Positions 2,780 through 41,525 of a stretch of 64,000 nt of DNA are shown piece after piece (within the stretch, counting starts at the first letter, position 1; every line of letters begins with the position of its first letter). The translations under genes and the position numbers were made by a program. This DNA is from Polaromonas sp. (lineage in GTDB: Bacteria; Pseudomonadota; Gammaproteobacteria; Burkholderiales; Burkholderiaceae_C), in assembly GCA_040400945.1 (NCBI GenBank), contig JBBAPG010000011.1:10400-74399 (forward strand). Reading direction: 5' to 3'. A model generated the notes under the pieces. The model did no database searches. It worked only from the letters and a program-made list of their open reading frames with translations, and was not told where the DNA came from.

Positions 2780-3679
2780 TCAGCGCACAGGCGAGCCCTG
2801 TGCAGCCTTGCCACCCGGCGCCAGAACCGAGGCGATGGCCGTGACCATCAAGCCCACTGCCGCCCAGTCCTGCCAGTGCAGCACTTCGCCCAGCCAAAGC
2901 GCCCCGGTGAACACACCCAGAATGGGAATCAACATCACGCTCAGCGTGGACGCCACCGGCGGCAAGCTGCGCGCCAAAAAGAACCAGGCGGCGTGGGCAA
3001 AGCCGAAGATCAGCACCGCGTTGTAGCCAATCGCGCCCCACACCGTGGGCGTGGGCATCTGCCACTGCGCGCGTTCAAAAACGAAGCTCAATCCGCTGAG
3101 TACGAGCGTGGTGAGCGCCGTCATCCAAAAAGAAATGGTCAGCGTGGCCACCGGCATGCGCGTGTTGCGCAGCATCTGCGTGCCCAGCGCCCAGACAGCC
3201 GCCGCCACCAGGGCCATGACCACACCCAGCGGCCGGCCCGACAAATTAGTCAGCTCATGCCACAGCAACAGCGACACGCCCAGCGCCGCCGCCGCCACAC
3301 CCATGCCATGTCGCGCACGCAGGCGATTGCCAAAGAACCACGCGCCAATCAGCGCCGAGAAGATCGGCATGGTGTAGCCCAGGATGGCCGAGCGGCCACT
3401 GGTCAAGCTCTGCACCGCCAAAATGATGAGTGCATGCCAGACAAACATATTGGCAAAGGCCAGCCAGAACAACTCCCGCCAGTGCGCACGCGGCACGACA
3501 AAAGGCACTCTCATCACCACCAGCGCCAGCCCCAACACGGGCAAGCCAAGCAGCATCGACAGCGCGCGAAATGTGAGTGGCGGATAGCCCGTCACGCCCA
3601 GCTTCATCACAGGCCAGTTCAAGCCCCACACCAGAGTGAGCAGCACCAGAAGGATCAGTTGTTGGCGGGTCAGTTGCAT
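2780..3679 (-). CDS. EamA/DMT family transporter
   Basis: 299-aa polytopic membrane protein. The N-terminus LLTLVWGLNWPVMKLGV is typical of EamA domains, and there are about 10 hydrophobic segments. Confidence 0.75.
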   Translation of the reverse strand: MQLTRQQLILLVLLTLVWGLNWPVMKLGVTGYPPLTFRALSMLLGLPVLGLALVVMRVPFVVPRAHWRELFWLAFANMFVWHALIILAVQSLTSGRSAILGYTMPIFSALIGAWFFGNRLRARHGMGVAAAALGVSLLLWHELTNLSGRPLGVVMALVAAAVWALGTQMLRNTRMPVATLTISFWMTALTTLVLSGLSFVFERAQWQMPTPTVWGAIGYNAVLIFGFAHAAWFFLARSLPPVASTLSVMLIPILGVFTGALWLGEVLHWQDWAAVGLMVTAIASVLAPGGKAAQGSPVR

Positions 3680-10321: not shown

Positions 10322-10419
10322 CATGGGCGGGTTCGTGCTCTTGTTAAGTAGTCAGGACTACGCCTCAATGGCGTGATGGAAAATGCGGCGTATTACTGCT
10401 AATCGCTAAAGGCACGCTC

Positions 10420-27547: not shown

Positions 27548-30500
27548 GCTATCGGGCACACAGCTTTGGGGAACACCAGCGCCTGGCCTTTGTCGAGTTG
27601 CGGCCGGACGGTTCATCCCCACGCACGTGGGGAACACCACCAGCACGGTGGAGTGCGTCAAGCTGGAGGCGCTTCATCCCCACGCGCGTGGGGAACACAG
27701 CAGCACATACGCACGGCCGCTTTTGACTTGCGGTTCATCCCAACGCGCGTGGGGAACACGCGATAGAGGAAGGCAAGCCGCAGTCCGAAGACGGTTCATC
27801 CCGCGCACGTAGGGAACACCTGCCATCGCGGTCAGGACGATAGACGTCGCCCGGTTCATCCCCACGCACGTGGGGAACACGCAGTCATGGCCGCCAACGC
27901 CCGCTCCGTCCTCGGTTCATCCCCACGCAGGTGGGGAACACCTTGACGCAAGGGGAGCGGCATAAATTCAGTCCGGTTCATCCCCACGCACGTAGGGAAC
28001 ACCCCTTGAGAACGTTGATACCCATGACGGGCTCCGGTTCATCCCCACACACGTGGGGAACACGAGGGATCGGATCACCGCCGCCGAAAGCCGGGACGGT
28101 TCATCCCCACGCACATGGGGAACACGCCCGCGATGCCGACTAGGCCCGCGCCGTGGTCCGGTTCATCCCCACGCACGTGGGGAACACTGCGGATCGAGGA
28201 AGAGCTGAGCGCTGCGCACCGGTTCATCCCCACGCACGTGGGGAACACGCCACCCGCGCCGGCTGCGCTGTCAAACCACGCGGTTCATCCCCACGCACGT
28301 GGGGAACACGCTCCGGGCTGCGCTCCGCGCCAGTCAGGGCGCGGTTCATCCCCACGCACGTGGGGAACACTGGTCTTCAGCCGTCATGCTGATCTGCTGA
28401 TACGGTTCATCCCCACGCACGTGGGGAACACTCATGCCGGGCAATGATCGTGTGCGCCCAGTTCGGTTCATCCCCACGCACGTGGGGAACACACAGAGGC
28501 TGAACTACCCACAATTATCAAAGCCGGTTCATCCCCACGCACGTGGGGAACACATGACGGGCGACTTCGCCGGGGCATCCACCGCCGGTTCATCCCCACG
28601 CACGTGGGGAACACCCATGCCGCGCGGTGGGCGTAGTAGAGGCCGTCGGTTCATCCCCACGCACGTGGGGAACACACTGCTGTTTTGGTTTACTCATGGC
28701 TTGGATCCGGTTCATCCCCACGCACGTGGGGAACACTGGCCTAAAGTTGCGTTGGCGTTGCCCGCAAACGGTTCATCCCCACGCACGTGGGGAACACAAT
28801 GTCAAAGAGTTCGTCGAGGATGCTCATGGCGGTTCATCCCCACGCACGTGGGGAACACAGGCGCCTTCGGCCTCTAGACCGAACGTTTCCCGGTTCATCC
28901 CCACGCACGTGGGGAACACGTGAATGTCCCACCCGGGAAAAAGGTAAGCGCCGGTTCATCCCCACGCACGTGGGGAACACCAAGCGAACACGCGCGGTAG
29001 CCGCTGGGTCTGCGGTTCATCCCCACGCACGTGGGGAACACGACCAGGCGCAGGCCGCTGAGCCCTTCAATCGCGGTTCATCCCCACGCACGTGGGGAAC
29101 ACCATGTCCAGGGTCGGTGATCCCGTGGGTATGGCGGTTCATCCCCACGCACGTGGGGAACACGCTGTGGCCACGTCTGCAAAGCTGCCTGTCGCCGGTT
29201 CATCCCCACGCACGTGGGGAACACCTTAACAAAGGCGGGCGCCAGGGCCCGGGTTCCGGTTCATCCCCACGCACGTGGGGAACACGGCTTGCCCAGGCCT
29301 TCAAGCGCCGGATCGTGCGGTTCATCCCCACGCACGTGGGGAACACATGACAGCAACAGTCGGCTTTACGTTGGGTTTCGGTTCATCCCCACGCACGTGG
29401 GGAACACCTTAACAAAGGCGGGCGCCAGGGCCCGGGTTCCGGTTCATCCCCACGCACGTGGGGAACACGGCTTGCCCAGGCCTTCAAGCGCCGGATCGTG
29501 CGGTTCATCCCCACGCACGTGGGGAACACATGACAGCAACAGTCGGCTTTACGTTGGGTTTCGGTTCATCCCCACGCACGTGGGGAACACCTTAACAAAG
29601 GCGGGCGCCAGGGCCCGGGTTCCGGTTCATCCCCACGCACGTGGGGAACACATGACAGCAACAGTCGGCTTTACGTTGGGTTTCGGTTCATCCCCACGCA
29701 CGTGGGGAACACTCCCCGGCTGCGCTTGGGCTTTCGCTTTGCGCCGGTTCATCCCCACGCACGTGGGGAACACAGGATGTCCAAGTAAGTCATCGCGATC
29801 ACCGTCGGTTCATCCCCACGCACGTGGGGAACACGCGGGCAAATGCCTGGGTGCCGTTCTCGATCAGCGGTTCATCCCCACGCACGTGGGGAACACCGTT
29901 CTGCGTGGTGCTGGTTCGATTGGTGCTACGGTTCATCCCCACGCACGTGGGGAACACACCGAAAGCCGCGGCGCCAACATCGAAGCCGACGGTTCATCCC
30001 CACGCACGTGGGGAACACACGAATCTCAGACTTGCGACCGGCGGTCGATACGGTTCATCCCCACGCACGTGGGGAACACTTGAAAATTCCAACGGCAATA
30101 TCCAACCCATCCGGTTCATCCCCACGCACGTGGGGAACACGGTCAGCGCCTGGAGTTTTACGAGCGTGGAGACGGTTCATCCCCACGCACGTGGGGAACA
30201 CGTGATCTTGCACAGCCACCGCAACGCTATCCGCGGTTCATCCCCACGCACGTGGGGAACACAGCTGGCGGCTGTTCTCGGTGGTCTGAAATTCCGGTTC
30301 ATCCCCACGCACGTGGGGAACACTCCTGACGCTGACTCAAGTACGCTGCTCATGGCGGTTCATCCCCACGCACGTGGGGAACACTTGCGACTGCCTATCC
30401 AATGCTCCGCCATAGCCGGTTCATCCCCACGCACGTGGGGAACACGGTGACCCCAGCCTTGACGGCGCGGTCTACTTGCGGTTCATCCCCACGCACGTGG

Positions 30501-32466
30501 GGAACACTTGGCCTGATTCGAGATTGAGGCCCTCAATGACGGTTCATCCCCACGCACGTGGGGAACACGATGCCGAAGCCGAGGGCACTCCGGGCTACCA
30601 GCGGTTCATCCCCACGCACGTGGGGAACACGGTTGGCCTCGATCTGGCGGATGTCTGAGAGCCGGTTCATCCCCACGCACGTGGGGAACACGCTGGGGAG
30701 GAACTGCCCAAGGCCGCGTTATCACGGTTCATCCCCACGCACGTGGGGAACACTCCGTGGCGAATCACGCGCAAGGCGTTGTCTACGGTTCATCCCCACG
30801 CACGTGGGGAACACCGGCAAAGCTAGAACGCGAACGACTGCGAGACCGGTTCATCCCCACGCACGTGGGGAACACCTAGGTTACCCAAGCATCAACATCC
30901 TGGGCCGCGGTTCATCCCCACGCACGTGGGGAACACCGCAGGATCAATGCTCTGGCAAAGCCCCACGACGGTTCATCCCCACGCACGTGGGGAACACGTG
31001 GTGGATGAGGGCGAGCGCGTCAAAGATGCCGGTTCATCCCCACGCACGTGGGGAACACAAACATGCCGTCATCACGGAGATAAACCGCGACGGTTCATCC
31101 CCACGCACGTGGGGAACACCAGTGCAAGCCAGCGGTGGAAGGCGCGATTTACGGTTCATCCCCACGCACGTGGGGAACACCAGATACAAAATCGGGGTCG
31201 TGTCGCCAGTGGCGGTTCATCCCCACGCACGTGGGGAACACACTGATTGGATAAAAGCCCTGAAGTCTGCGATCGGTTCATCCCCACGCACGTGGGGAAC
31301 ACGCCCAACCGGCGCGCTGCACGCCATCCCTCAGAGCGGTTCATCCCCACGCACGTGGGGAACACCTGTCACCTCCGGCGTGTACGTGGCTTTCAGGCGG
31401 TTCATCCCCACGCACGTGGGGAACACGTCCTGCCCACCACCGGCGGCTACACAAAGGACGGTTCATCCCCACGCACGTGGGGAACACCGCGGCGCCATGA
31501 CCACCGAAGACACCAGGGCCGGTTCATCCCCACGCACGTGGGGAACACTATCGAAGCGTCTCCCCCGATGGTCTGACTGACGGTTCATCCCCACGCACGT
31601 GGGGAACACCGCTCCCACACGGCCGCGAATCGCCCGGAGGCGGTTCATCCCCACGCACGTGGGGAACACACCGCGTCCGACAAGTCGGGCAAGCTGTCGT
31701 TCGGTTCATCCCCACGCACGTGGGGAACACTGCGGCGATTGTCGAGAGGCACGGTCACCACGTCGGTTCATCCCCACGCACGTGGGGAACACGGTGGTGG
31801 TGGACGGCGCGGCGGTGACAAGTACGGTTCATCCCCACGCACGTGGGGAACACGAGCGGGTGAACGATGGAGATGTGCCACCAAGCACGGTTCATCCCCA
31901 CGCACGTGGGGAACACCACACGTAAGCGGCAGTGTCAGGCCAGTGGCGCGGTTCATCCCCACGCACGTGGGGAACACGCCTCCCACGTGATAGCGATGAT
32001 CTGACCGTACGGTTCATCCCCACGCACGTGGGGAACACTCCTGTCCAGGACGGTCAATTGCAAGGGCGCACGGTTCATCCCCACGCACGTGGGGAACACA
32101 CCTCTGCGATCTTCGGCATCAAGAAGGTCCGCGGTTCATCCCCACGCACGTGGGGAACACGCGGTATGAATGCGGTGCAGGCTGGCAGTGGCGCGGTTCA
32201 TCCCCACGCACGTGGGGAACACCACTTGGCTGAGACGAAGAAGCTCAGATAGGCCGGTTCATCCCCACGCACGTGGGGAACACTTGCGTGGCCTGCAGCT
32301 GGTCTGCGGCGAATGCGGTTCATCCCCACGCACGTGGGGAACACGATGGCGTCAGGCAGTTGGTCGGGGGCGTCGTCGGTTCATCCCCACGCACGTGGGG
32401 AACACTCACGGCGGCGGCGGGCTCCGCTGCTGTGGCACGGTTCATCCCCACGCACGTGGGGAACAC
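27548..32466 (-). CRISPR. type I-E CRISPR array: 80 full repeats plus 1 degenerate terminal repeat, about 80 spacers
   Basis: On the plus strand the repeat is CGGTTCATCCCCACGCACGTGGGGAACAC. In the transcription sense (minus strand) it is GTGTTCCCCACGTGCGTGGGGATGAACCG, with the I-E hallmark hairpin and the ATGAACCG 5' handle. I located every repeat from 27609 to 32438. The period is 61 bp with mostly 32-nt spacers; eight spacers are 33 nt, two are 34 nt and one is 31 nt. Repeats are degenerate at the low-coordinate (trailer) end. The leader and cas2 lie at the high-coordinate end. Confidence 0.97.
29196..29683. repeat. tandem duplication of a 183-bp three-spacer block within the array (copies at 29196-29378 and 29379-29561; partial third copy at 29562-29683)
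   Basis: The spacers are A=CTTAACAAAGGCGGGCGCCAGGGCCCGGGTTC, B=GGCTTGCCCAGGCCTTCAAGCGCCGGATCGTG and C=ATGACAGCAACAGTCGGCTTTACGTTGGGTTT. They occur in the order A-B-C-A-B-C-A-C. Confidence 0.95.
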
Positions 32467-32551: not shown

Positions 32552-33745
<1,194 letters not shown>

Positions 33746-33749
<4 letters not shown>

Positions 33750-34438
33750 AAAGCCCGTTGAACCAGGAGCAAGCCGCAGCCCATGCCTTTCGCGCTGCCG
33801 ATGCCCTTAAACAGAGCGGGCATGAAAGCATCAACATCCGTAATCAAGAGTTGGCCAGCCAAGTCAATGGTGCTCATGGTGAGTGACCGGTCTTTGCGTT
33901 CTTGGTGCTGCTCGTAGCTGTTCACGACCAACTTTTCAGGCACTAACTCGAACCCCAGCCTTTCGCCTCGGCGAGCTAACCAGTGCTCGGTTGCCTTCTG
34001 CACCAAAGCATACGTGTCTGGCTTGTCGTCACCGGTCCAGTCTGACCATCGCTTCAAACCGCGTTGGTGCAAGAGCTGCTTTTTGGCCTCCATCACTACA
34101 TCGTGGCGCTTGGACTTGCCATCACGGCCATGGCGCACTGTGGGGTTAGCGCGCAGCTCGAATTGCAGAACATCACCCATCGCCAATTTGGGGGCATAGT
34201 GCTTGGTTTCGGAACGCCAATGACCCAAATGCGGGACGGGCATGCGTTCAGAGACCACATAAAACCGCACGGCACCATCAACTGAATGCCGCCTGAACAA
34301 ATAGTCCCGCTGCGTCCCTGGCTCTGAAGGAAACCAATGCCAAAGCCACTGATGGTCGTCATAGAGTTCGTCAGCATTCAGCGCTTGAAACGCAAGTCGG
34401 CTTTCGCCTTCCTTTGGCTTGATTTCACTCAGGTACAT
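33746..34438 (-). CDS. cas6e: CRISPR RNA endoribonuclease Cas6e (CasE/Cse3)
   Basis: Lies within ORF 33746..34540, with the ATG at 34438 as start (MYLSEIKPKEG...). The C-terminal sequence GIGSAKGMGCGLLLV is the Cas6e G-rich loop. Gene order supports the call. Confidence 0.85.
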
Positions 34439-35192
34439 GGTCGTCCTCTTTTTTGCAGAGATGGATGTGTTCCGTTCTGTCGCCAAACAGCCAGCCGCCT
34501 CGCCTGATAAGCCTGTCTTGCCGGCGCACCACCAAGTCACTGCTCACGCCCGCCTCAATGTGCTCGTCAAACGCTACGCGTTGAATGGCGGGCAAGGGCT
34601 CGATAACGGCTTTCCCGTTAAGTTGCCGAGCCTGCTCGTGCGCCGTCTTGAACTTGGCGAACGCTTCCGTTGCTGTTTCAGCAGCAAGCACTTGTGGCCA
34701 CAAGGGTGCGCTAGGTGCGCATGACTTGCGCCCCAGATAAAGAACATATTTCGGCTTTTTGAGAGCATCGGCCAACGCTTGCAGGGAATAGGCGGAGGCA
34801 ACACCCTGGCGGATGCACATGGCGACGAGGTATGCGCTGTTTTGCCGGTAATCGCGGGTCGACAAGATCGTGGACAAATCGTGCTTAGGCACAGAAAGTT
34901 CATGCCGCCGGGTGACATGGGGTCGACCTTTCAGCTTGTTCTCAGGGGGCACTTGCGCCGTCTGGTAATCACGCAAAAGACTGCCCGTGTCCAGCACAGC
35001 CACCGCAAACCCGAGGCTGCCCTGCAAGCTGGCATGGGCTTGCTCGTCTGCGCGGTCAAGCCCCAGCGCTGCGCCAAGCAAGCCAAGCAAGGCGGATTGC
35101 CCAGGAAATTCCGCAGTGCCTCGATGCCCGCCCACGGCGGGATCACCCCAAGAGCTCAGCTGGGCCTGGAGTTGAATGACCAGATAGTCCAT
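34425..35192 (-). CDS. cas5e: Cascade subunit Cas5e (CasD)
   Basis: MDYLVIQLQAQLSSWGD...FPGQSALLGLLGAALG is the Cas5e N-terminal signature. Confidence 0.88.
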   Translation of the reverse strand: MDYLVIQLQAQLSSWGDPAVGGHRGTAEFPGQSALLGLLGAALGLDRADEQAHASLQGSLGFAVAVLDTGSLLRDYQTAQVPPENKLKGRPHVTRRHELSVPKHDLSTILSTRDYRQNSAYLVAMCIRQGVASAYSLQALADALKKPKYVLYLGRKSCAPSAPLWPQVLAAETATEAFAKFKTAHEQARQLNGKAVIEPLPAIQRVAFDEHIEAGVSSDLVVRRQDRLIRRGGWLFGDRTEHIHLCKKEDDHVPE

Positions 35193-36883: not shown

Positions 36884-38509
36884 TCAATTCACAGCTTTCT
36901 TGGGCGCCGCCGCCTTGGCAGTACGTTCTTCAGCAGGCAAGCCCAAGGCGGCACGCAGCTTGGGTGTGCTTGCCATCAGCCGTTTTTTGGCCTGAGCAAT
37001 GCGTGCAGGGTTTTCGCGCTCGATAGCGCCAGCCCCGATGAACTCTTTGTCGAACAGGTTTTGGATGGCTTTGTAGAGATAAGCGCACCAGCGCTCCGAC
37101 GCTTCTGTGCGGTCCACCACAACGCCCGCTTGCGCGGCGTGGATACGTTCTTCCAGAAGGCGGTAGAACGGAGCCTCGGTCGCGCTCCAAAAGGTTGCAT
37201 CAACAAAGCTGAAGTCACCTCGCGCGTCTTTTGAGAACCAACACGCTTTCACGGCATCCCGAAGCAATCGCATGGCCGTCTCTGCACCGGCCACCCAGCC
37301 TGCAACCTCTTGGCTTACCTCCGCGTACACATGGGGCTCACAATCAGCAAGCGCGTACAAGGGCACCGTTGACTCGTACCAGCAGCGTGCCTTAGCCGAA
37401 TCCATATCGAATCCAAAGGCCCAGATGCGAAGGCGTAGACCCGTGCGACGACCCATGCCGCTTTCCAAAAAGTGACTCACCGTTGTGGCGGCTTCTACTT
37501 GACGGTTTTCCGTCCTCAAGCCCACCGCCCACTCGGCCCAATGCCTGTAACCAAAACCGCCGGGCTGCGGATGCATCGGCAACAGCGCTTCTTTGGTCTG
37601 GTAGTAGGGCGACAAAGGGTGGCGCCACGGCCCTTTGTAGTTGAGGCCCTGGTTGCGAGTCATGTAACTGCGGACCACTTGGTCAGTCGGTCTTGCGCAT
37701 AAGTCACAGGTGCCCACATGCGCTTCGGCCTCCGCAAAGCGGATGCGGCGCGGCATGGCCCAAAACACATGCGTTGGATGCACCTGCTCGGGGGCTACCG
37801 TCCCTCCTTCAGCCTGAAGAGTCTGCTGCGAGGCCAGCCACGGAAAAGTTTCCCAAGGTGCGGTTCGCTCTGGTGAGCCACCGCCGGCTTCAAAGTGGGC
37901 GGTATCCATCACATTGAGCCAGAGCGAATGCCAGAGGCTGTTTTCGTTCGGATCACTTGAGGATGACAGCAGGAGCGTGGTCAAGGGTCCGCCGCCGCGC
38001 ACACTCGTGCGGTAGCCCACGCCACCGCTAGGCGCATTGATTTGAAGGGTGAACAGCGCCGTTACTGCGCAGTGCATGCACAACGCTTCGATGCCACCGC
38101 GCTTTACAAAATGGTCGGTGTTGTTCTTGAGGGCGTTACCACCGGGCCGCTCAATCAGGAGAGAGCCGATGTCGAGAAGCTCGTCCGGCGCCAAGGCCAG
38201 TTCCAAGTCCTGCATGAACCGTGGGCCATCACCTTCGCATTCAAAAAAAGCTTGCACAGGGGCAAACAAAGCTTTGAGCTCATCCGCACTTGGCGGCTGG
38301 GTCCAGCGCTTGCGGCTTTCGATGGGGTTGTTGGGTGCAAAAGTCGTCTGAAACAAGCCGATGACAAACTGGGCCAAGGCGCCGTTGAAGTCGGCACGGT
38401 CCGCGTCAAACGCGAGGATGTCCGGCCGGGTCAGCTCTGTTGGCGCTACCCAGGCTCTGCTTCCATCACGGAGTCGAACCGGCATCCAGTTATCAGTAAT
38501 AAGGTTCAT
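36884..38509 (-). CDS. cas8e: Cascade large subunit Cas8e (Cse1/CasA)
   Basis: 541 aa. MNLITDNWMPVR is the conserved Cse1 N-terminus. Its position after cas3 supports the call. Confidence 0.88.
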   Translation of the reverse strand: MNLITDNWMPVRLRDGSRAWVAPTELTRPDILAFDADRADFNGALAQFVIGLFQTTFAPNNPIESRKRWTQPPSADELKALFAPVQAFFECEGDGPRFMQDLELALAPDELLDIGSLLIERPGGNALKNNTDHFVKRGGIEALCMHCAVTALFTLQINAPSGGVGYRTSVRGGGPLTTLLLSSSSDPNENSLWHSLWLNVMDTAHFEAGGGSPERTAPWETFPWLASQQTLQAEGGTVAPEQVHPTHVFWAMPRRIRFAEAEAHVGTCDLCARPTDQVVRSYMTRNQGLNYKGPWRHPLSPYYQTKEALLPMHPQPGGFGYRHWAEWAVGLRTENRQVEAATTVSHFLESGMGRRTGLRLRIWAFGFDMDSAKARCWYESTVPLYALADCEPHVYAEVSQEVAGWVAGAETAMRLLRDAVKACWFSKDARGDFSFVDATFWSATEAPFYRLLEERIHAAQAGVVVDRTEASERWCAYLYKAIQNLFDKEFIGAGAIERENPARIAQAKKRLMASTPKLRAALGLPAEERTAKAAAPKKAVN

Positions 38510-38573
38510 TTTTCAGCCCGATTGAAAGTTATTCCGCCAAAAACCTACTTTTATTTACTACTTTATCATCACA

Positions 38574-38592
38574 AAGCTAAGTGGTGCTAATA
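38574..38592 (+). promoter_or_regulatory. candidate Cascade binding site: AAG PAM plus a 16-nt partial protospacer for the adjacent pseudo-spacer
   Basis: AAG (38574-38576) is followed by CTAAGTGGTGCTAATA. The pseudo-spacer is CTAAGCGGTGCAAAAA. They are identical at positions 1-5, 7-11, 13, 14 and 16, and mismatched at 6, 12 and 15. The site lies in the 29% GC part of the cas3-cas8e intergenic region, where the Cascade-operon promoter is expected. Confidence 0.4.
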
Positions 38593-38612
38593 AATTTCAA
38601 CTACAGTCCATT

Positions 38613-38685
38613 GGGTTCTCTACGCAGTGGAGATGAACCGCTAAGCGGTGCAAAAAAAGTTCCTCACGCGGTGGGGATGCAAGCG
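38613..38685 (+). ncRNA. CRISPR repeat-like mini-array (psiR1, 16-nt pseudo-spacer, psiR2), antisense to the cas genes; candidate CreR/CreA-like RNA
   Basis: psiR1 (38613-38640) is GGGTTCTCTACGCAGTGGAGATGAACCG. psiR2 (38657-38685) is AAGTTCCTCACGCGGTGGGGATGCAAGCG. The consensus is GTGTTCCCCACGTGCGTGGGGATGAACCG. Both hairpins are retained, through a compensatory C:G to T:A change and G.U pairs that work only in plus-strand RNA. The 8-nt 5' handle of psiR1 is perfect. Confidence 0.5.
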
Positions 38686-38699
38686 ACGGGCGCAAGAAA

Positions 38700-41525
38700 T
38701 CAAGTCACTTGCTTGGCAAGTAGCAATCCCGTGGTGCGGCTGTAGTGCCAGAGGACGGCCGATTTGGTCGGCTGCCCATTTGTGCTGGGTGCGCCAATGG
38801 CGCTTGCAGAGAATCCGGACGGCGTTGGCTCCATCGGGAGGAGCACCAGCCATTTGCCGCCTGACGGGAGCCCTGCCTTGATCGCCTCAATCGCGGCGCT
38901 ACGCGCAGGACGCACTTCTGGATCGGCTTCATTAATCAGCCGTCGCGCCACGCGGAGCGTGCTGTAAGCCCAGGGGTGGGCCACTTTGTCTTGGCGCAAA
39001 GGCTGAAGCTCGTCGCCATGCCACACACCCAGCAACACCTCAACGCTTTCTTCACCCAACCGGGACGGCGCCACGCTGTCGGCCGTCCAGTCGAAATTGG
39101 TCCGGGTGTAGCCACTGCCCTGCTTGATGCCATTCATACGGGCCTGGCTGACGTCGCTGTAATGCTTGCCCAGCGCTTTTGTTGAACTCAAGGTCAAGCC
39201 TTCTGGCTCGTCGATGTCGCTGCCGAAGACACCCTCGATGAGCTTGCGCGCATCGTCAGGCATGGAGATTTCTGAGGCTTGAAGCGCTTTGGCCGACAGC
39301 CACACTTGGGCATGGTTGGGGTACACAAAAGAGGCTTTTGGCAGCGCATCTTTCAGCCACGATACGCTCGGCTGCTCGGTCCACACGGGGCCGTAAACCC
39401 AGAGACAAGCAGGCCCGCGTTCGTCGGTCGCGCCCGGGTACGTCAGGCGTTCACCCGCAGCAGTACGGACGTGCCGGCGCAGCCGCCCTGCCCGCTGGAG
39501 AACCCGGTCAATTGGGGCTATGTCGGAGACCAGCCAATCGACATCGATATCGAGCGATTGCTCGACAACCTGAGTAGCAATCAACAGTTGCCCTCGCCGC
39601 AAGGCGGGTGTGCTTTCATTGCCAAATTTCTTTAGTACTTCGTCTTCAATATCAAGCCGGTCACCCAAGGCAAAGCGCGCGTGAAACAAGGTGATGGTTT
39701 CAAGGTCAACATAGGTCGAAAGCTCAGCTTGTGCATCAAGCGCATCGGCCACGGTGTTGCGAATCCAGGCTACGCACTGCCCGCGCTTGAGCGCTGCAAC
39801 GATCTCCTGCACAAGCAATGAACGGTCTGAAAAATAGCGGAGGCCCAAAGTACGCCGAACCGACTCGCGTGTGGCGATGGCTTGCTCCACCAGGCGCTGG
39901 GGCTGGGACGCCGCCCAAGTCGTGGCCAACGGGAAGGCGTCTAACGCCGGCTCTGGCGCTCGCGTTTTAGTTGGGGCTTGTGTCTGCGCTTGTGCCCCCT
40001 TTGCGAAGGCGTTCAGCAGCGCAGTGCGACTCGCCATCGGCAAGGTGGCCGACATGAGAATGGCGCTGCCGCCCGCGCGGGCATGAAACGTCAGCAGGTT
40101 TTCAAGTGTGCCCTGCATGTAGCTGTCGCAGGCGTGTACCTCGTCAACCACCAGTACCTTGCGCGCCAGCCCGAGTAAGCGCAGGGATTGGTGTTTGCTT
40201 TGGAGTACCGCGAGCAATGCTTGGTCAATGGTACCGACGCCAGCCGGACACAAAAGCGAGCGCTTGTTATGGTCTGCCAGCCAGCTCAGGCAACGCTGGG
40301 TCGCGCTCTCGTCGCCTTGTCGCTTGTCGTGCTCCGCAGGACCCGTTCGGATGATGGAGTTGGCAAAAGCCTCAACCAAAGTTCTTTGACCGTGCATAAG
40401 AGCCAAACTCGCGTCACTGCCGAACAAGACTTGATAGAACTCCGCCAAGCGCCCATACATCGCGTTGGCGGTGGCCATGCTTGGCAGGCCAAGAAAGAAT
40501 CCGTCAGCAGAGCCATTCGCCATCAGTCGATGGGTCAGGATCATGGCGGCTTCGGTTTTCCCGGCGCCGGTCACATCCTCAAGAATGTGGAGCTGCGGCC
40601 CAGTCTCCAGCGCCTGTTGATCCGTCCATAACTGCAATGGCGAGAGCTTTGCAATCCCAGGAAAGAGATCGCTGGATGAAAGCAACTTCTGCCGGGCTGG
40701 CATCACCACCCCCGTCAACGCCAGTGCCCGATGTGCCTTGGCCTGCGCCTCCAACCAATAGGTCGCAATGTCGGCTTCGGGGTCGTTCAGGTAGTTGAAA
40801 ACCTCCGTGTTCGAACCGATCCAATCGGCCAACACCGCGATGCCGGCCACCCACCATGAGACTACCTCGCTCGATGCCAAGAAATCGGCAGGGTCTAGCT
40901 TGGCAATGCGCTGACAAACGGTGTCCGGAAGCAGCCAGTCGCGCATCAATCGCGTGAAGCTCATCGCAGCTTCCACGTCTTGCTGCCTAAAGTGAGTCAG
41001 TCCTCTGCTGCTTCTGCTTGGAACGACTTGAGTAATAGGCCCATTGCTCGGCGGCTGGCCGTGGTGACCGGTGACCGCTTTCGCCCAGCAGCGCAGTCCG
41101 TAGTGAACATCCTCATCCGCTCCAAACCAAGCTTCGCTGCTGAGCGTGGGTTCAAACACATCGCACCACAGCGCGTAACCCAAGGTGTCGTGCCGCACCC
41201 CTGTCAGCGGCGAGCCATGAGGCGGGCCTTGCAGTGACGCCGCCAATTCTGGCAGTTGACCCTGAAAGCTAAAGGAGAACTTGCCAAGGTCGTGAATCGA
41301 CAACCAAAAAGTGACCCACGCGATGAGTTCTTCCCGGTCTGGAATACCCGTGGCCTCGCAGAGCCAGCCAGTCAGCGCGGGAGACTTTTCAAGGTACAAC
41401 TTTCCAACTGCGGCGACATCCAGCGCATGAAAAGCCAAGCAATGAAATTCAGGTCCACCGTTACTTGGCCTAGCCTTGCCCCAATAGCGCATGAAATCTA
41501 GGGTTCGCGTCGTGTATTGTTCCAA
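38700..41525 (-). CDS. cas3: CRISPR-associated helicase/nuclease Cas3 (HD plus SF2 helicase)
   Basis: 941 aa. The HD domain contains HCLAFHALDVAAV and HDLGKFS. The helicase motifs are VTGAGKTEA (motif I) and VVDEVHA (DEAH-like). The C-terminal domain is present. Confidence 0.93.
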   Translation of the reverse strand: MEQYTTRTLDFMRYWGKARPSNGGPEFHCLAFHALDVAAVGKLYLEKSPALTGWLCEATGIPDREELIAWVTFWLSIHDLGKFSFSFQGQLPELAASLQGPPHGSPLTGVRHDTLGYALWCDVFEPTLSSEAWFGADEDVHYGLRCWAKAVTGHHGQPPSNGPITQVVPSRSSRGLTHFRQQDVEAAMSFTRLMRDWLLPDTVCQRIAKLDPADFLASSEVVSWWVAGIAVLADWIGSNTEVFNYLNDPEADIATYWLEAQAKAHRALALTGVVMPARQKLLSSSDLFPGIAKLSPLQLWTDQQALETGPQLHILEDVTGAGKTEAAMILTHRLMANGSADGFFLGLPSMATANAMYGRLAEFYQVLFGSDASLALMHGQRTLVEAFANSIIRTGPAEHDKRQGDESATQRCLSWLADHNKRSLLCPAGVGTIDQALLAVLQSKHQSLRLLGLARKVLVVDEVHACDSYMQGTLENLLTFHARAGGSAILMSATLPMASRTALLNAFAKGAQAQTQAPTKTRAPEPALDAFPLATTWAASQPQRLVEQAIATRESVRRTLGLRYFSDRSLLVQEIVAALKRGQCVAWIRNTVADALDAQAELSTYVDLETITLFHARFALGDRLDIEDEVLKKFGNESTPALRRGQLLIATQVVEQSLDIDVDWLVSDIAPIDRVLQRAGRLRRHVRTAAGERLTYPGATDERGPACLWVYGPVWTEQPSVSWLKDALPKASFVYPNHAQVWLSAKALQASEISMPDDARKLIEGVFGSDIDEPEGLTLSSTKALGKHYSDVSQARMNGIKQGSGYTRTNFDWTADSVAPSRLGEESVEVLLGVWHGDELQPLRQDKVAHPWAYSTLRVARRLINEADPEVRPARSAAIEAIKAGLPSGGKWLVLLPMEPTPSGFSASAIGAPSTNGQPTKSAVLWHYSRTTGLLLAKQVT

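Follow-up and report, generated by a model that had tools for sequence, protein, structure and literature searches.

The type I-E clustered regularly interspaced short palindromic repeat (CRISPR) system of a Polaromonas sp. (contig JBBAPG010000011.1) raises a simple question: why does the gap between cas3 and cas8e carry two degenerate copies of the CRISPR repeat, placed close together and on the strand opposite to all the cas genes? The window, i.e., the whole stretch of 64,000 nucleotides (nt) that was analysed (positions 10,400 to 74,399 of the contig), encodes on its minus strand a complete type I-E system, in which cas6e and the Cascade genes are intact, as judged from Pfam matches and open reading frames (ORFs). 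All coordinates below are those of the window unless another locus is named. An earlier note on this DNA had proposed that the two copies form a mini-array whose RNA would guide Cascade to a site just upstream of cas8e. The comparison with related loci presented here leads us to consider it likely that the element is the creR of this type I-E system, i.e., a degenerate mini-CRISPR made of two repeats (psiR1 and psiR2) and a pseudo-spacer (psiS) that would guide Cascade to its own promoter region. The CreR class is not new, since it was described in papers of 2023, and the present element adds a further instance to it.

The gap between the two genes spans 190 nt (38510-38699), and the mini-array lies within it on the plus strand, antisense to the cas genes and divergent from cas8e. 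The first repeat, psiR1 (GGGTTCTCTACGCAGTGGAGATGAACCG, 38613-38640), and the second, psiR2 (AAGTTCCTCACGCGGTGGGGATGCAAGCG, 38657-38685), are degenerate versions of the repeat of the main CRISPR array, which is present there in 79 copies and reads GTGTTCCCCACGTGCGTGGGGATGAACCG in its transcribed (minus) sense. Between them lies psiS, the putative guide, of 16 nt (CTAAGCGGTGCAAAAA, 38641-38656, plus strand). When some 5,900 chunks of 60 nt, taken from both strands of the window outside the array, were scored against the repeat, the chunks with psiR2 and psiR1 came first (33.5 and 31.0) and the next best reached 25. The two repeats keep different parts of the original: psiR1 ends in a perfect copy of the 8-nt 5' handle (ATGAACCG, 38633-38640), and psiR2 keeps GTTCC and the hairpin, its handle part being degenerate (ATGCAAGCG). 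The same split, the handle kept by psiR1 and the hairpin by psiR2, was found in 34 loci.

Both stems are preserved. In psiR1, positions 38618-38623 pair with 38627-38632 around a GCA loop (C18-G32, T19-A31, C20-G30, T21.G29, A22-T28 and C23-G27, in the last two digits of each position). The T-A pair stands where the array repeat has C-G, and there is one T.G pair besides. The stem of psiR2 (38662-38667 with 38671-38676, loop GCG) also includes a T.G pair (T64.G74). A check against the sequence returned all the coordinates and bases that the earlier note had given for the gap, the mini-array, the AAG motif and the target, as well as its description of the handle and of the paired positions. Its argument that the T.G pairs would form G.U pairs only in plus-strand RNA is borne out by folding: the plus-strand hairpins of psiR1 and psiR2 reach -9.7 and -9.0 kcal/mol, versus -7.3 (in a different, poorer fold) and -4.6 kcal/mol for the minus strand.

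The pseudo-spacer has a partner in the same gap. A protospacer-like target (CTAAGTGGTGCTAATA, 38577-38592), which is a partial copy of psiS on the same (plus) strand, is immediately preceded by AAG (38574-38576, plus strand), the protospacer-adjacent motif (PAM) as read on the non-target strand. Guide and target (CTAAGCGGTGC / CTAAGTGGTGC) are identical at positions 1-5, 7-11, 13, 14 and 16 of 16, with mismatches at 6, 12 and 15. The target lies 64 nt upstream of psiS and 67 nt upstream of the cas8e ATG, with 64 nt between the PAM and the ATG, in a stretch of low GC content (28.7% in 38521-38600 versus 63.4% in the whole window, close to the 29% previously counted by hand). The motif AAG followed by CTAAGNGGTGC (AAG-CTAAG-N-GGTGC), searched with at most one mismatch, occurs a single time in the 64 kb, at the target site, and no AAG-flanked partner matching at 10/10 core positions turned up for any of 2000 shuffled pseudo-spacers within the 960 nt that precede cas8e. 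The earlier claim that the PAM and seed match exceed chance expectation thus holds: the mini-array and its match to the target are not the product of chance.

If the element is functional, it should be found, and should covary with its target, in homologous loci, which was the test set beforehand by the earlier note. The Cas8e relatives place the locus among Burkholderiales. We gathered 146 related loci for which the DNA upstream of cas8e could be read, drawing on collections of genomes and of metagenomes and on exact-protein look-ups; the last of these yielded the closest relatives, and a metagenome scan for closer relatives found none above 55% Cas8e identity. Mini-arrays were searched as a handle-like 8-mer after a hairpin, followed 12-44 nt later by TT and a second hairpin. 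Matches were obtained in 43 loci antisense to cas8e versus 6 in the sense orientation, and curation and the removal of duplicates left 36 non-redundant antisense mini-arrays in the 146 loci (25%). To count as a target, an AAG-flanked site had to match the 17 nt that follow the handle at 8 or more of the ten positions 1-5 and 7-11. Such targets are present in 34 of the 36 mini-array loci, always between psiR1 and cas8e, and 26 of them have a 10/10 core match. When spacers and regions were swapped between loci (1,214 foreign pairs), the scores centred on 5-6, with 13 pairs reaching 8 and one reaching 10.

Some loci show variations in the arrangement of the target. In L144, a single guide has a pair of tandem targets about 375 nt upstream of cas8e, both flanked by AAG. 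Three others (L048, L053 and L074) carry the target on the strand opposite to creR, and inspection by eye suggests that L047 uses an ATG PAM, again on the opposite strand.

The matches between guides and targets are distributed along the guide in a characteristic way. Across the 34 pairs, each of positions 1-5 matches in 33-34 and each of positions 7-11 in 30-34 (88-100%), versus 8 pairs (24%) at position 6 and 13 (38%) at position 12. Beyond these, position 13 matches in 29 pairs, position 14 in 21 and positions 15-17 in about 15, and from position 18 onward matching is roughly random. Positions 6 and 12-17 played no part in choosing the targets. A dip at every sixth guide position is a known signature of type I Cascade, and the silence of positions 6 and 12, which the earlier note had drawn from Escherichia coli Cascade, is visible across the loci. 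We also considered whether position 6 is selected to be mismatched and rejected the idea, as 8 matches in 34 is about the random rate.

The search above presupposes hairpins, and we therefore repeated the analysis in a way independent of the hairpin filter. There are 73 handle-like 8-mers (at most one mismatch) antisense to cas8e in these regions, of which 35 precede a guide that has a PAM-flanked target; the sense strand has 84 such 8-mers and none with a PAM-flanked target. Almost all the target-bearing handles (33/35) adjoin a hairpin of at least 5 bp, for a background of 7.7%. The hairpins covary, as the earlier note had predicted. Since a MAFFT alignment of all psiR1 copies placed its gaps at the 5' end and not in the loops, and is unfit for pair counting, the counts rest on handle-anchored comparisons and on an ungapped 29-nt subset. 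In the latter (16 sequences), 5 of the 6 pairs of the psiR1 helix change on both sides. The compensatory cells number 28 versus 7.7 in shuffles, none of 500 shuffles reaching 28, and the covariation score is 0.88 versus at most 0.20 when the partners are slid.

The relatives closest to the window among those that keep a target allow us to follow guide and target together. The psiS of the window is homologous to those of L082 (Cas8e 68% identical; guide and target TTAGGCGGTCT / TTAGGTGGTCT) and L083 (66% identical; CTAGGCGGTCT / CTAGGTGGTCT). The core shared by psiS and target reads CTAAG.GGTGC in the window, TTAGG.GGTCT in L082 and CTAGG.GGTCT in L083. Hence, positions 1, 4, 10 and 11 vary among the three loci, and they always do so jointly in guide and target, which is the co-variation anticipated for a pseudo-spacer and its target. 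The C/T mismatch at position 6 is common to the three. In L083, a two-gene cassette (positions 2024-2721 of that locus), encoding a protein of 93 amino acids (aa) and a PIN-domain protein, is inserted between cas3 and the mini-array; it is probably a toxin-antitoxin pair.

Where would the promoters be? A terminator-like hairpin lies over the last codons and the stop codon of cas3 (38706-38722, minus strand), with a T-rich tail into the gap, and the Cascade operon should therefore need its own promoter there. The hairpin and its tail point to cas3 and the Cascade operon being transcribed as distinct units here. Past this hairpin, the stretch that holds the target is the only AT-rich one. Among the relatives, 9 of 31 loci (versus 0.6 expected) have a TTGAC -35 in the direction of cas8e that begins 1-13 nt away from the first base of the PAM, so that a bound Cascade would sit against the -35 of the operon promoter. 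In addition, 15 of 34 loci have an extended -10 (TGnNAnnnT) whose end is 9-12 nt short of the psiR1 stem (background 0.0023 per nt), which indicates that the mini-array has its own promoter, reading away from cas8e. By positional homology, the candidate creR -10 of the window would be TACAGT (38602-38607, plus strand), which ends 10 nt before the psiR1 stem, the modal distance. The candidate cas8e promoter is weak (TTATTA-17-GATGAT with an upstream TG, 38565-38593, minus strand; 7/12 in a relaxed scan) and would enclose the target and the PAM. The gap is so short that the single target is only some 10-35 bp away from the candidate -10 of each divergent promoter, and one bound Cascade would probably repress both.

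How the element would work in this organism, from the transcription of creR and the processing of its RNA to a shortened Cascade, the exact promoters and repression, we infer from the sequence. Under the cleavage rule of Escherichia coli Cas6e, cuts are predicted between 38632 and 38633 in psiR1 and after 38676 in psiR2, i.e., at the 3' base of both hairpins. They would release a 44-nt RNA resembling a CRISPR RNA (crRNA), the predicted mature CreR (38633-38676, plus strand), made of the 8-nt handle, the 16-nt guide and a 20-nt 3' hairpin. The presumed processing endonuclease is the product of cas6e (33746-34540, minus strand; Pfam PF08798, E = 9e-42). The RNA would load into a Cascade with fewer Cas7 subunits than normal, and this complex would recognise AAG and pair with the strand opposite to 38577-38592 at positions 1-5, 7-11, 13, 14 and 16, with guide positions 6 and 12 as the flipped-out ones. 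Cascade would then park on the presumed promoter region, an AT-rich stretch 67 bp upstream of cas8e, and neither R-loop locking nor Cas3 cleavage would follow because the duplex would be too short. In E. coli, there is no interference with a 14-nt spacer and only weak interference with a 20-nt one (PMC5159557); a 16-nt guide therefore falls in the range where Cascade would bind and not cut. Transcription of the Cascade operon would be lowered, and probably that of creR too, its candidate -10 being 10-15 bp away. Abundant crRNAs from the main array (79 repeats, 27609-32466, minus strand), as competitors of CreR for Cascade, or else anti-CRISPR proteins, would draw Cascade off CreR and cause derepression, so that the whole would amount to a negative feedback. 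The most complete form of this account, in which a working CreR with a 16-nt guide sits in an off-register "mini-Cascade" of three or four Cas7 and shuts both divergent promoters from one site, is possible but rather doubtful.

The length of the guide sets the element of the window apart. The loci can be grouped by the distance that separates the handle from the psiR2 hairpin: about 25 loci have 37/38 nt, about 9 have 25/26 nt and one has 30 nt. The first class corresponds to a normal spacer of 32/33 nt, and the second is 12 nt shorter, i.e., two Cas7 fewer. These quantised distances fit the removal of whole Cas7 units, the lineage of the window excepted. The guide of the window, with its 16 nt, is the shortest of the 36 mini-arrays (relatives have about 20 or 32).

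Several observations weigh against a creR that works in this genome, and the first is precisely this distance: it is 21 nt only in the window and in L081, 4 nt below that of L082 and L083 and off the 6-nt register of Cas7. The whole 83-nt region is not significantly better folded than its shuffles (z = -1.4), so that folding alone is insufficient to carry the case. A standard promoter scan of both strands of the gap gave no match, and a relaxed one reached 7-8 of 12 matches at best, which leaves the promoter positions tentative; TACAGT has neither the TG of the extended -10 of the relatives nor a good -35. In four relatives (P0005-P0008, 57-61%), cas3 and cas8e overlap and there is no gap to host the element. 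Finally, L081, the closest relative (Cas8e 94% identical), lacks a 41-nt segment equivalent to about 38567-38607 of the window, which includes the target and the putative creR -10; there are also changes at positions 5 and 9 of its seed and damage to its psiR1 stem (positions 2851-3000 of that locus). This is an apparent recent loss of CreR function, with decay following the loss of the partner. Loss of the element is thus under way in the lineage, where it is dispensable. We considered an inverted copy of the target in L081 (AAG+CTAAA on the other strand) and rejected it, as by eye only five seed bases match.

These data open the way to the best of the rival explanations, according to which the element descends from a functional creR and is now a decaying pseudogene that no longer works in this genome. 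It would explain why the distance from handle to hairpin departs from the 25/26 or 37/38 nt of about 34 other loci, why L081, which shares the 21-nt form, has lost the target, carries changes in the seed and has a broken psiR1 stem, and why no promoter in the gap passes the standard scan. However, the window preserves both hairpins intact, along with the perfect handle, the PAM and the ten core positions of the seed. At just 6% Cas8e divergence, L081 shows how fast decay proceeds once the target is gone, which argues that the intact state of the window is maintained by selection. The shortness of the guide is not decisive either, because identity between guide and target does not extend beyond about the first 11-17 nt in any of the 34 pairs, and a 16-nt guide keeps the whole functional part. 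Furthermore, spacer length does not matter to the processing of crRNAs by E. coli Cas6e, and E. coli Cascade tolerates a spacer shortened by 3 nt (29 nt), whose length is off the 6-nt register; shortened crRNAs, with spacers down to 14 nt, assemble Cascade with fewer Cas7, and the 14-nt spacer still gave primed adaptation (PMC5159557). Since all the parts that are decaying in L081 are intact in the window, we give the pseudogene low weight and regard it as unlikely.

The element might also be the CreA of a CreTA addiction module, whose RNA would repress a toxin gene by the target, either in place of the cas operon or in addition to it, so that the loss of Cascade would kill the cell. The architecture is the same as that of CreA, and small ORFs are found between the target and cas8e in some relatives (a 63-aa ORF in L001, L003 and L007, and others in L074, L079 and L136/L137); toxin-antitoxin genes are enriched in that position (Shmakov et al., bioRxiv 10.1101/2023.03.03.530964). 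In the window, however, the 64-nt interval between the PAM and the ATG has no ORF of at least 20 aa in the sense of the cas genes. The ORFs of the gap, one of 54 aa on the plus strand that starts upstream of any plausible transcription start and one of 32 aa on the minus strand that is upstream of the target, do not lie downstream of the targeted promoter. An Rfam search of 38300-38900 at a permissive threshold assigned no family, the best match being Chlorobi-1 (E = 0.35), far below its gathering score. A tiny RNA toxin behind the target is formally conceivable, and we regard the addiction module as very improbable here. The earlier note had offered autoregulation or an addiction-type safeguard as the outcome: the comparative data support a CreR-like regulator, and the addiction part finds no support, as the window has no toxin candidate behind the targeted promoter. 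Lastly, the view that this is no guide RNA, and that the repeats are chance or relic palindromes (an inverted array fragment), terminator hairpins of cas3 or a minus-strand "anti-repeat" pairing with pre-crRNA, could invoke that any fragment of palindromic repeats gives hairpins on both strands and that these ones sit just past the end of cas3, but it is hardly credible given the complete strand asymmetry of handle and target combinations (35 antisense versus 0 sense), the G.U pairs and better folding on the plus strand only, the covarying stems, the terminator-like hairpin that cas3 has of its own, and a PAM, a seed and free positions 6 and 12 that make sense only for a plus-strand Cascade guide.

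The small ORFs of the relatives deserve a description of their own. The one of L001, L003 and L007 is a conserved hydrophobic ORF of 63 aa (MWRE[IV]FR...GGGH[VI][EQ]QIA[VI]LF...), the first gene behind the CreR-targeted promoter, and runs from about 190 nt upstream of cas8e to an overlap with the cas8e start. No Pfam family matches it, and under the control of Cascade its product could act as cargo or as a CreT-like toxin. In the interval from the target to cas8e, L074 and L079 encode hydrophobic peptides of 40 aa, L136/L137 a 70-aa ORF with a sub-threshold match to SlyX, L147 a 93-aa protein weakly similar to Cas2 and L056 a 98-aa protein. The small ORFs of these latter loci are unrelated; the "cargo" of the regulated promoter is varied there.

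The other components of the system are arranged around the element as follows, all on the minus strand. The genes flanking the gap are cas3 (38700-41525) and cas8e (36884-38509; Pfam PF09481, E = 5e-98); cse2, cas7 and cas5 belong to the same system, and cas1 and cas2 end at 32552. The main array contains a perfect tandem duplication of 183 nt (29196-29378 and 29379-29561, 100% identical) that doubles three consecutive repeat-spacer units. Degenerate repeats occupy its cas-distal end (27670-27822); they show 1-2 or more mismatches, and one of them is displaced by 1 base, which fits a trailer end on that side and a leader adjoining cas2.

As a probable CreR, the element provides a clear, comparatively validated case in a betaproteobacterial type I-E system (Burkholderiales) with a very large array, and supports the view that autoregulation of Cascade by crRNA-like RNAs is common. 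The 34 guide-target pairs amount to a natural "mutational scan" of what type I-E Cascade would need to bind without cleaving: the AAG PAM and positions 1-5 and 7-11 would be required, 13-14 would contribute to some extent, and 6, 12 and everything from 18 on would count for nothing. We did not find the length classes, the conserved extended -10 or the decay of identity after about position 17 stated in the accounts of CreR and mini-arrays that we compared. Should the 16-nt CreR prove true, it would mark how far a natural Cascade guide can be reduced in size, and the short guide of the window and the decayed copy of L081 together show how such regulators shrink and vanish.

How does the element compare with known systems? 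One parallel is with the viral Cracr RNAs, which are crRNA-like, have guides of 17-24 nt and direct Cascade to the casA promoter (bioRxiv 10.1101/2024.10.29.618823). The element of the window would similarly be a crRNA-like RNA with a short guide, but Cracr RNAs are carried by phages or prophages as anti-CRISPRs, whereas this one is inside the cas operon of the host and of chromosomal type. A scan of viral contigs for the handle and the seed gave three matches, all in the coding sequence of one phage and without hairpins, which we judged to be due to chance. Since the element lies outside any mobile element and the scan revealed no viral mimic, it does not belong to the viral Cracr/Racr class. 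The CreA of the type I-B CreTA of Haloarcula hispanica (Li et al. 2021, as described in bioRxiv 10.1101/2023.03.10.532045) acts on a single site between divergent promoters, both of which are repressed. It shares with the present element the principle of a degenerate mini-CRISPR RNA that guides Cascade to a partly matching PAM-flanked site, and the two promoters would here be those of creR and cas8e. In contrast, the main target of CreA is the toxin gene creT, which makes the cas genes addictive; the window has no toxin candidate, and both the subtype and the domain of life differ. The element is thus outside CreTA as defined, because no toxin candidate lies behind the target.

The element also resembles the mini-arrays of type I-E and I-F1 systems (Shmakov et al. 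2023, bioRxiv 10.1101/2023.03.03.530964), of which one of Pseudomonas aeruginosa (I-F1) was demonstrated to mature through Cas6 and to repress the cas promoter by means of Cascade and independently of Cas3. The I-E mini-arrays of that study lie between cas3 and cas8, opposite to cas3, with an AAG PAM and mismatches at every sixth position. Like them, the present element sits in the cas3-cas8 gap, its seed-side repeat is the better conserved one, and its target has a canonical PAM and would lie in the cas8 promoter region. The distribution is patchy in both cases (about 19% of bacterial I-E loci in that study versus 36/146, or 25%, here), and the 190-nt gap of the window is just below the criterion used there for long gaps (>200 bp).

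A tested member of the class is the CreR of the type I-E system of Salmonella enterica, which represses PcasA through Cascade and responds to the load of crRNAs and to AcrIE8 (Liu et al. 2023, bioRxiv 10.1101/2023.03.10.532045); its maturation through Cas6 and a repression that depends on Cascade and not on Cas3 were demonstrated in E. coli, and the division of labour between a psiR1 handle and a psiR2 hairpin was described for it in the same work. Both are stand-alone degenerate mini-CRISPRs of type I-E upstream of casA/cas8e, with a psiR1 that provides the handle and a psiR2 that provides the 3' hairpin, and both have a guide partly identical to a 5'-AAG-3'-flanked site upstream of the first Cascade gene and no accompanying toxin gene. 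They differ in that the Salmonella guide matches over 15 consecutive nt a site about 140 bp upstream of casA, whereas the match in the window is broken at positions 6, 12 and 15 and its site is 67 bp upstream of cas8e. The element of the window, known here from its sequence, also has a guide of only 16 nt, a different repeat and a host of high GC content among Burkholderiales. It nevertheless displays every sequence-level trait of CreR and I-E mini-arrays: the location, the opposite sense of its predicted transcription, the psiR1/psiR2 split, the AAG, a match restricted to the seed and mismatches at the sixth positions.

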